64,000 nucleotides of DNA, from NCBI RefSeq assembly GCF_003334305.1, contig NZ_QOWS01000025.1; one strand, written 5' to 3'. Each line of letters begins with the position of its first letter. The stretch's first letter is position 1. Source of the stretch: Escherichia coli. Its GTDB lineage: Bacteria; Pseudomonadota; Gammaproteobacteria; Enterobacterales; Enterobacteriaceae. Shown here in pieces: positions 15,101 through 18,100 of this stretch. The position numbers are program-made.

Positions 15101-18100
15101 CCAGGCAAGCGCCATGAATAGCCGCGATAACCGGAATGGGCAAAGCATGAATCTCCGCCATCAACTGTTGGCCCTGCCGCGCCAGTGCTTCCGCTTCTTG
15201 CGCCGTTTTGCAGTTGCCGATCATGTTGATGTCTGCGCCAGCAATGAAGTTGTCCGGTTTAGCGGAGACAAACACCACGCCTCGCAACTCTTTGTTTTCA
15301 CGGAGTTGCTTAATAATGGCGCGCACCTGCGAGGCAAACTCCGCCTTCAGGGTATTCATTTTCTCACCCGGTACGTCGATGGTGATAACGGCAATGTTGT
15401 CCAGACGAACATTAAGGGTAAACGCTGATGTCATTTCCATTATTCCGCCTCCAGAACCATTGCCGCGCCAAGCCCACCGGCAGCACAGGCGGTAACTAAA
15501 CCAAATCCACCGCCGCGACGGTGAAGTTCATGCAATGTCTGGGTAATCATCCGCGCGCCGGTCGCCGCGAAGGGATGCCCGTAAGCAATCGAACCGCCAA
15601 GCACGTTAAATTTGCTATCGTCCACTTCGCCAGTGGCATGTGCACGCCCCAGTACTTCACGAGCAAAACGTTCGCTGCCCAGCAACTGAATATTCGCCAG
15701 TGTCTGAGCGGCAAAGGCTTCGTGCATATCGATCAATGTCAGATCGCTCATCGTCAAACCGGCACGTTCCAGCGCCAGCGGCGTTGACCAGGCCGGACCG
15801 AGCAACATGTCCTGCCAGACATCAATCGCAGTAAATGCGTAGCTGCGCAGATACCCCAGCGGTACCAGCCCTAATTCTTTCGCCCGGGATTCAGTCATCA
15901 GGATCACCGCCGCTGCGCCATCGGTCAGCGGCGTACTGTTCGCCGCCGTTACCGTTCCGTGTTTGCGATCAAACGCCGGGCGCAGCTTTGCGTAATCGGC
16001 AAGCGAGGAATTACCGCGAATATTGTTGTCTTCGACAAGCGGTTGTTTATAAGGAGGGATAAAGGCAGTCATCACCTCTTCTTTGAGTTTACCGTCTGAC
16101 CACGCCTGAGCGGCACGCTGATGCGAACGGTGCGCTAATGCATCTTGCTGTTCTCGGGTGATGCCGTAGGTTTTCGCCATTTGTTCGGCGGTGTCGCCCA
16201 TCCGCAAGCCAGTAGAATATTCTGCTACCGCAGGCGGTACGGGCATTAAGTCGCGCAAACGCAGGCGAGAGAAGAGTTTCAGTCGCTGGCTCATGGTTCG
16301 AGCTTTGTTGACATCAACCAGCACGCGCGCCAGTTTTTTACTGACGCCAATTGGCAATACGGAAGAGGAATCTGCCCCACCGGCAATCCCCGCTCGGATA
16401 GTTCCCGCCATCAGGCTTTCTGCGACGTTTGCAACCGCCTGGAAACTGGTAGCGCAAGCGCGGCTGACGCTGTAAGCATCGGTATGCACATTCATTCCGG
16501 TACCGAGAACAATTTCACGCGCAATGTTGGGGGCTTCAGGCATTTGTACGACCTGACCAAAGACCAGCTGTTCAATCACTTCAGCGGGGATCTCGCTGCG
16601 TGCCAGCAGTTCGCCTACCACCATCTTCCCTAAATCAACCGCGGGAATGCCATGAAAAGCCGTCGCCTGGCGGGCAAAAGGCGTACGTAAACCGCTAACA
16701 ATGGCGATACGATCGCCCTGGCGGGTAACCAGCGGTAAAACCTGACCCATAACACTCCCCTGTAAAAAAATAAATAAAGTGGTCTGACCTGATCATAGTC
16801 TTAACCATTTTTTTACATTTAGCCAAGCGGAGAAAAAGGAAAGTGGGAGCTATGACACAGTGAAGACAGGAGAAAGAAAAGAAAACGCCCCTGCCAGCAA
16901 CTGACAGGGGCGAACGTACCCGAGAGGAATTAACGCAGACCCAGCTGGAAGATCAGCATTTCAGCTTCGCAGGCAAAAGTGAAATCGATATCCAGGCGCA
17001 CACCGTCAGACTCTTCAGTGAAAGTCGGGGAGATTTTGCACGGTTCGGATTCCACGCTACGGGCTTTTTCAGTCAGCGCCGCCAGCGTTTGTTCTGCTTC
17101 TGCGCGGTTTGCAAACACGCGGCTGTAAGACGCGGTGCAGTCGGAGTTGTCCATAATGGTGCCAACATCCATACAGCAGCAAACCGGGGTTTCATCAGCA
17201 CTACATTTACTCATCGTTGATTTCCTCTGTATGTGCACCCAAGGTGCCAGATAAACGTTGTGGATATTTTACGCTTCCGGAAAGTGCTGCTCCAGTTGTT
17301 AATTCTGCAAAATCGGATAAGTGACCGAAATCACACTTAAAAATGATCTAAAACAAAATTCACCCGAATCCGCGAGTGCGCAACCTCCAAATTTTGCCAG
17401 CTGGATCGCGTTTCTTAGATCATATTTGAAAAAAGATAGAAACATACTTGCAACATTCCAGCTGGTCCGACCTATACTCTCGCCACTGGTCTGATTTCTA
17501 AGATGTACCTCAGACCCTACACTTCGCGCTCCTGTTACAGCACGTAACATAGTTTGTATAAAAATAAATCATTGAGGTTATGGTCATGAGCCAGAAAACC
17601 CTGTTTACAAAGTCTGCTCTCGCAGTCGCAGTGGCACTTATCTCCACCCAGGCCTGGTCGGCAGGCTTTCAGTTAAACGAATTTTCTTCCTCTGGCCTGG
17701 GCCGGGCTTATTCAGGGGAAGGCGCAATTGCCGATGATGCAGGTAACGTTAGCCGTAACCCCGCATTGATTACCATGTTTGACCGCCCGACATTTTCTGC
17801 GGGTGCGGTTTATATTGACCCGGATGTGAATATCAGCGGAACGTCTCCGTCTGGTCGTAGCCTGAAAGCCGATAACATCGCGCCTACGGCATGGGTTCCG
17901 AACATGCACTTTGTTGCACCGATTAACGACCAATTTGGTTGGGGCGCTTCTATTACCTCTAACTATGGTCTGGCAACAGAGTTTAATGATACTTATGCAG
18001 GCGGCTCTGTCGGGGGTACAACTGACCTTGAAACCATGAACCTGAACTTAAGCGGTGCGTATCGCTTAAATAATGCATGGAGCTTTGGTCTTGGTTTCAA

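Follow-up and report, generated by a model that had tools for sequence, protein, structure and literature searches.

FadR operators at the fadIJ and fadL promoters flanking yfcZ in a non-K-12 Escherichia coli are identical to those of K-12

The fad genes of Escherichia coli are controlled by FadR, which belongs to the GntR family and whose published 17-bp operator consensus is AACTGGTCNGACCWGTT, also given as aaCTGGTCnGACC(T/A)Gtt (review PMC9329746). At the mechanistic level it is established that apo-FadR blocks transcription and is released by acyl-CoA, with cAMP-CRP activation and ArcA repression acting in addition (PMC9329746, PMC3460868). According to the same 2022 review, FadR directly represses both fadL and fadIJ through sites lying over their start sites; the start site of fadIJ is a prediction from genome-wide mapping, and the FadR site of fadIJ (yfcYX) is credited to Campbell, Morgan-Kiss & Cronan 2003 (PMC9329746). 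Induction of fadIJ by long-chain fatty acids has been described as FadR-dependent. The review also assigns a CRP site to the fadIJ promoter, and the main text of the paper cited for it does not mention fadI. Binding of FadR to fadL has been studied by gel shift with 35-bp probes, whose sequences Feng & Cronan 2012 give among their primers (PMC3460868). In those experiments both fadL sites were bound with equal affinity, oleoyl-CoA abolished binding, and the results agreed with earlier DNase I footprints (PMC3460868). Repression of fadL in vivo is modest and lower than at promoters with a single site, being about 2-fold in a fadR point mutant (PMC3460868), and only modest derepression of fadL has been reported in a fadR deletion. 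A functional CRP site has been placed 157 bp upstream of the fadL start, a distance considered by its discoverers to be atypically far for ordinary activation, together with a predicted but non-functional CRP site 57 bp downstream (PMC3460868).

The locus described here belongs to a 64-kb stretch of E. coli DNA, which was analysed in full and is referred to as the window. It has the K-12 gene order (fadJ-fadI-yfcZ / fadL), and the 2.5 kb around the sites of interest find a single match in each of 5426 complete E. coli genomes, several of them at 100%. Further along, directly past yfdC, csc sucrose-utilisation genes adjoin a tRNA-Arg gene (22590-22664), and a truncated dsdX comes after them (23106-27992), an arrangement that identifies the window as non-K-12 E. 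coli. The features relevant to the locus are the following.

13296-15440, minus strand: fadJ (RefSeq annotation of an identical genome).
15440-16750, minus strand: fadI, which opens the fadIJ operon (same RefSeq annotation).
16777-16793, minus strand: fadIJ FadR operator; the fadI sense strand reads ATCAGGTCAGACCACTT, the plus strand AAGTGGTCTGACCTGAT.
16797-16826, minus strand: putative fadIJ core promoter, with -35 element TTGGCT (16826-16821), 18-nt spacer and AAGACT (16802-16797).
16844-16859, no strand assigned: CRP-like box TGGGA-N6-ACACA upstream of fadI, conserved at its TG.GA and CACA positions.
16886-16912, minus strand: strong intrinsic terminator after yfcZ, between yfcZ and the fadIJ promoter, with a 12-bp stem of which 9 pairs are G-C, followed by TTTTCTTTTC.
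16930-17214, minus strand: yfcZ (DUF406), between both promoters (annotation and translation).
17320-17335, no strand assigned: fadL cAMP-CRP site 1, aGTGA-N6-TCACA, inside the match of the bound CRP probe; column identity 0.92.
17460-17476, plus strand: fadL FadR operator 1, AGCTGGTCCGACCTATA, at about -25 to -9, its right half overlapping the -10 hexamer.
17473-17478, plus strand: fadL -10 hexamer TATACT, read from the sequence and fully conserved in the alignment.
17484-17500, plus strand: fadL FadR operator 2, CACTGGTCTGATTTCTA, at about -1 to +16, with a perfect left half-site and a degenerate right half.
17586-18926, plus strand: fadL, outer-membrane long-chain fatty-acid channel (annotation).

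The original prediction had quoted three strings as FadR-like operators at the fadIJ and fadL promoters, and each of them indeed occurs exactly once in the window. The fadI string, aagtggtctgacctgatca, occupies 16777-16795, 27 nt upstream of the fadI ATG (16750, minus strand), and the two fadL strings, agctggtccgacctatact and cactggtctgatttcta, occupy 17460-17478 and 17484-17500, their site centres preceding the fadL ATG (17586) by 118 and 94 nt. A TGGTC-N-GAC core had been attributed to all three, and this applies to the fadI site and fadL site 1 but not to the third, which reads TGGTCTGAT (TGGTC-T-GAT). Accordingly, the 17-bp palindrome with its TGGTC-N-GACC core is found in the fadI site and fadL site 1, and fadL site 2 carries its left half only. 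The range given for the feature, 16751-17585, does span the operators but also takes in the whole of yfcZ, which is no part of them.

How far these sites stand out from chance was measured with a FadR weight matrix trained on five sites of other genes only (fadBA, two from fadD, fabA and fabB), all taken from published gel-shift probes and none from the fadI-yfcZ-fadL locus. The scan covered both strands of the window (127,968 positions) and agreed with the prediction, placing fadL operator 1 first (14.0 bits), the fadI site second (13.7 bits) and fadL operator 2 at rank 33 (8.35 bits). The margin is thin, as a FadR-like match within the fadI coding sequence (15804-15820, GTCTGGCAGGACATGTT), treated as chance, reaches 13.2 bits. 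A symmetrised version of the matrix discriminated less well than the plain one and was dropped. Comparison with the consensus AACTGGTCNGACCWGTT gives a similar picture: the fadI site, with 2 mismatches, is the best in the window, and together with fadL site 1 (3 mismatches) it makes up the best two, against 0.04 matches expected per 64 kb at up to 2 mismatches and 0.65 at up to 3 in simulated 64-kb sequences. On sequence alone fadL site 2 is indistinguishable from chance, since it has 5 mismatches and 49 such positions were observed in the window versus 47 expected; it is taken as real, and can be separated from chance, only because of its position, its conservation and the published binding data. 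The element TGGTCNGAC is present in 5 copies versus 1.18 expected in 64 kb, of which just the two at the fad promoters are intergenic. The remaining copies (16094 in fadI and 33428 in evgA, both within annotated coding sequence, and 51212) fall outside the fad promoter spacers, were rejected as operators and are treated as chance. So is a palindromic ATCTGGTTTGCCCGGTT at 27267-27283, inside the gene for the LacI-family csc regulator, which shows 4 mismatches.

At fadL, the published probes tie the window directly to the binding experiments. The probe for FadR site 1 matches exactly at 17450-17484 and encloses operator 1, the probe for site 2 matches exactly at 17477-17511 and encloses operator 2, and the probe shown to bind CRP-cAMP matches exactly at 17305-17349. 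The CRP cores lie at 17320-17335 (functional) and 17533-17548 (predicted, non-functional). Because both published CRP distances and these core positions converge there, the fadL +1 is placed at about 17484-17485, and operator 1 therefore spans about -25 to -9 and operator 2 about -1 to +16. Consequently, the sites are not displaced from the mapped promoter, and the repressor geometry over the -10 and +1 of a sigma-70 promoter is found at fadL. These positions relative to the start also agree with the coordinates reportedly obtained in the original footprints. A consensus promoter scan was discarded as a guide to promoter positions, for it missed the known fadL promoter, called no fadI promoter and gave only TTGCCA-18-GATCAT at 17394-17423. 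Scanning 16000-19500 against Rfam at E<=1 returned no matches.

At fadI, the same geometry is reached by inference. On the fadI sense strand a conserved order is observed, formed by the CRP-like box (16844-16859), TTGGCT, the 18-nt spacer, AAGACT and the operator, and the promoter blocks are nearly invariant in an alignment of 101 sequences. From this order we infer a fadI start near 16790, which would put the operator at about -4 to +14 and the CRP-like box at about -61.5, and would predict a 5' leader of roughly 40 nt. Direct binding of FadR at the fadI site is stated by the review (PMC9329746). No paper came up when full texts were searched for the operator string.

The conservation of the sites was followed in loci retrieved from one-genome-per-species contigs by searching the DNA with a degenerate pattern that encodes the YfcZ motif CCCMDVGT. 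This yielded 120 loci, and 101 of these, all from Enterobacterales, keep the fadI-yfcZ-fadL arrangement, with the sites retained at the orthologous promoters in almost all. In nearly all of the 101, AAGTGGTCTGACCTGAT or a variant differing at one base gives the best matrix match of the fadI-yfcZ spacer, centred 32-48 nt from the fadI ATG. The top matches in the yfcZ-fadL spacer are both fadL operators in most of the loci, with centres 24 bp from each other and about 118 and 94 nt ahead of the ATG. Column identity, measured against the window sequence over the 101 sequences, is 0.99 for the fadI operator versus 0.67 for the fadI-yfcZ spacer, and 0.89 and 0.95 for fadL operators 1 and 2 versus 0.77 for theirs. 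FadR alone does not account for the conservation of the fadL sites, to which the -10 hexamer and the start site that they overlap must contribute a part. The three-site arrangement is in this way documented as fixed across almost all of about 100 enterobacterial species. Within E. coli, the 45-bp block of the fadL operators is present in 5425 of the 5426 genomes (5371 exact), and 5123 carry an exact copy of the 30-bp block that surrounds the fadI operator.

Some departures from this pattern were also recorded. An exact 28-mer around the fadI operator (16771-16800) is missing from 303 of the 5426 E. coli genomes, versus 1 of 5426 for the fadL block, and the differences affect either the operator or the adjacent A/T runs. 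In E. coli NIPH17_0020 (L123:3440-3615) the fadI leader is rearranged and shorter by about 56 bp; it has no -10 region, and the central base of the operator is gone (AAGTGGTCGACCTGATC). The cause is either a naturally occurring promoter lesion or an error of assembly. In Tenebrionibacter intestinalis the fadI-yfcZ spacer measures 1715 bp instead of the usual 170 or so, and fadL operator 1 is unrecognisable (score 2.8), with operator 2 and the fadI site persisting.

Taken together, the matrix ranks, the identity with K-12, the matches of the gel-shift probes, the position and conservation of the sites and the published review (PMC9329746) support the reading originally proposed, and the three sequences are almost certainly the FadR operators of two fad-regulon promoters in E. 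coli. Under this reading, when long-chain fatty acids are absent one FadR dimer would occupy each 17-bp imperfect palindrome with the TGGTC-N-GACC core. At fadL one dimer would lie over the -10 region (about -25 to -9) and another over the start (about -1 to +16), and at fadIJ a single dimer would cover the predicted start (about -4 to +14), in each case taking up space needed by RNA polymerase. Imported fatty acids would be converted to long-chain acyl-CoA, whose binding to FadR would take the protein off the DNA, and this release would allow transcription of fadL and fadIJ, also subject to cAMP-CRP activation and ArcA repression. The geometry at both promoters fits the established FadR model.

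The alternative that survives best, itself very improbable, is that the boxes are mainly operators of other GntR regulators of the FadR subfamily, LldR (lactate) or PdhR (pyruvate), which recognise palindromes of the TGGT-N3-ACCA type with a related core, and that FadR is secondary. The LldR boxes named by a genomic SELEX study include exactly AgcTGGTCcGACCtaTa and cAcTGGTCtGAtttcTa, both in the yfcZ/fadL spacer, and fadL mRNA is reported to respond to both deletion and overexpression of lldR (PMC10272880). For PdhR, a SELEX peak in the fadI/yfcZ spacer and a reduction of fadI mRNA in a pdhR mutant have been published. However, the LldR peak at fadL is weak, with an intensity of 6.6 at a cutoff of 6 versus 62.9 at lldP (PMC10272880), and the box put forward for PdhR at fadI differs in sequence from the sites treated here, falls inside fadI codons (16729-16745) and matches at 7 of 14 positions. 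The three sites are closer to the FadR-specific TGGTC-N-GACC than to the LldR or PdhR palindromes, and it is for FadR that binding, ligand release and in vivo derepression have been published with these sequences (PMC9329746, PMC3460868). LldR and PdhR also differ from FadR in their effectors and in being reported here as activators, not repressors. At most, they would constitute additional inputs at fadL and fadI.

Two details of the boxes assigned to these regulators deserve a record of their own. The PdhR box given for fadIJ (cAgcGGTaaaACCtgac) corresponds to fadI codons 3-8 and lies outside the spacer with the reported SELEX peak. In the LldR study, TATAGGTCGGACCAGCT is listed as a box in the yfdY/lpxP spacer (PMC10272880), matches fadL operator 1 exactly once reverse-complemented, and is absent from the yfdY-lpxP spacer of the window (44559-44910) and of K-12 when up to 3 mismatches are allowed; the entry is probably a slip in that table. 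The second yfdY/lpxP box of the same study is present at 44830-44846.

The idea that the sites are chance resemblances whose conservation reflects only the core promoter they overlap (-10, start and initial transcribed sequence) draws on the chance-level score of fadL operator 2, on the coincidence of the right half of operator 1 with the -10 hexamer region (CCTATACT) and on the lack of independent support for promoters at these sites in a simple promoter scan, but is barely credible given that the most invariant columns belong to half-sites that do not overlap the promoter hexamers (CTGGTC in the two fadL sites, GGTCAGACCAC in the fadI one), that two of the three lead all consensus matches in 64 kb where 0.04-0.65 would be expected, and that direct FadR binding has been published by gel shift (PMC3460868). 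Chance is excluded for two of the sites by sequence and for the third, fadL operator 2, by conservation and published binding.

With the three sites accepted as FadR operators, it is pertinent to consider the gene between them. The neighbourhood had been described as a compact FadR-controlled locus, a description that suits fadIJ and fadL but does not demonstrably extend to yfcZ, which has its own terminator and its own promoter and shows no FadR-like site near where that promoter probably lies. Expression of yfcZ from its own promoter in plasmid constructs has been published; papers that use yfcZ mRNA as an RppH substrate give no 5' end for it. Of the operators described, the one at fadI is located downstream of the terminator of yfcZ (16886-16912) and those at fadL stand some 190 bp or further upstream of the region where the yfcZ promoter probably is; the matrix scan found no other well-scoring site in the spacer. 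Neither a FadR site of its own nor co-transcription, either of which would place yfcZ in the FadR regulon, was thus found. A conserved TAAAAT (17271-17266, minus strand) would put a yfcZ start about 68 bp from the CRP site at 17320-17335, which lies upstream of it. That this CRP site chiefly serves the divergent yfcZ promoter is an unlikely but conceivable arrangement; if so, yfcZ would be a CRP-controlled, FadR-independent companion of the fad genes. In the same region, a published RpoN/NtrC genomic-SELEX peak (older K-12 coordinate 2,458,968) corresponds approximately to window position 17226, near the start of yfcZ, and a conserved CTGGAGCAGCACTTTCC on the minus strand (17280-17296) weakly resembles a sigma-54 -24/-12 element, with TC for GC at -12.

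In comparison with the described systems, the three operators are already known, and the copy in the window is identical to that of K-12. In the comparison with K-12 proposed with the original prediction, the operators are base-for-base the same, and the fadL pair lies inside exact copies of the probes. Footprints of the fadL operators, designated OL1 and OL2, were reportedly obtained by DiRusso et al. in 1993. The whole of 17440-17585 is identical to K-12, and the spacing of OL1 and OL2 and their position over -10 and +1 are as in the window, with no difference. The window 19-mer at fadI is likewise identical to K-12 2460496-2460514, with no difference detected; the K-12 site is single, close to the start codon and said to overlap the start site (PMC9329746). 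The significance of the locus is mainly one of annotation, as its operators belong to the textbook picture of the fad regulon in E. coli. True regulatory sites were recovered by the original prediction from sequence alone. Among the other promoters of the regulon, the fadBA operator ATCTGGTACGACCAGAT also belongs to the class of 17-bp FadR palindromes and, like that of fadIJ, is the only site at its promoter. It is a nearly perfect palindrome that provides 5-10-fold repression, whereas at fadL symmetry is lower and repression, despite the presence of two sites, only about 2-fold (PMC3460868). The sole other fad promoter with two FadR sites is that of fadD, where repression is also modest (PMC3460868). 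The fadD sites, however, are 68 bp apart and of unequal affinity, whereas those of fadL are separated by 7-8 bp and bind FadR with equal affinity (PMC3460868).
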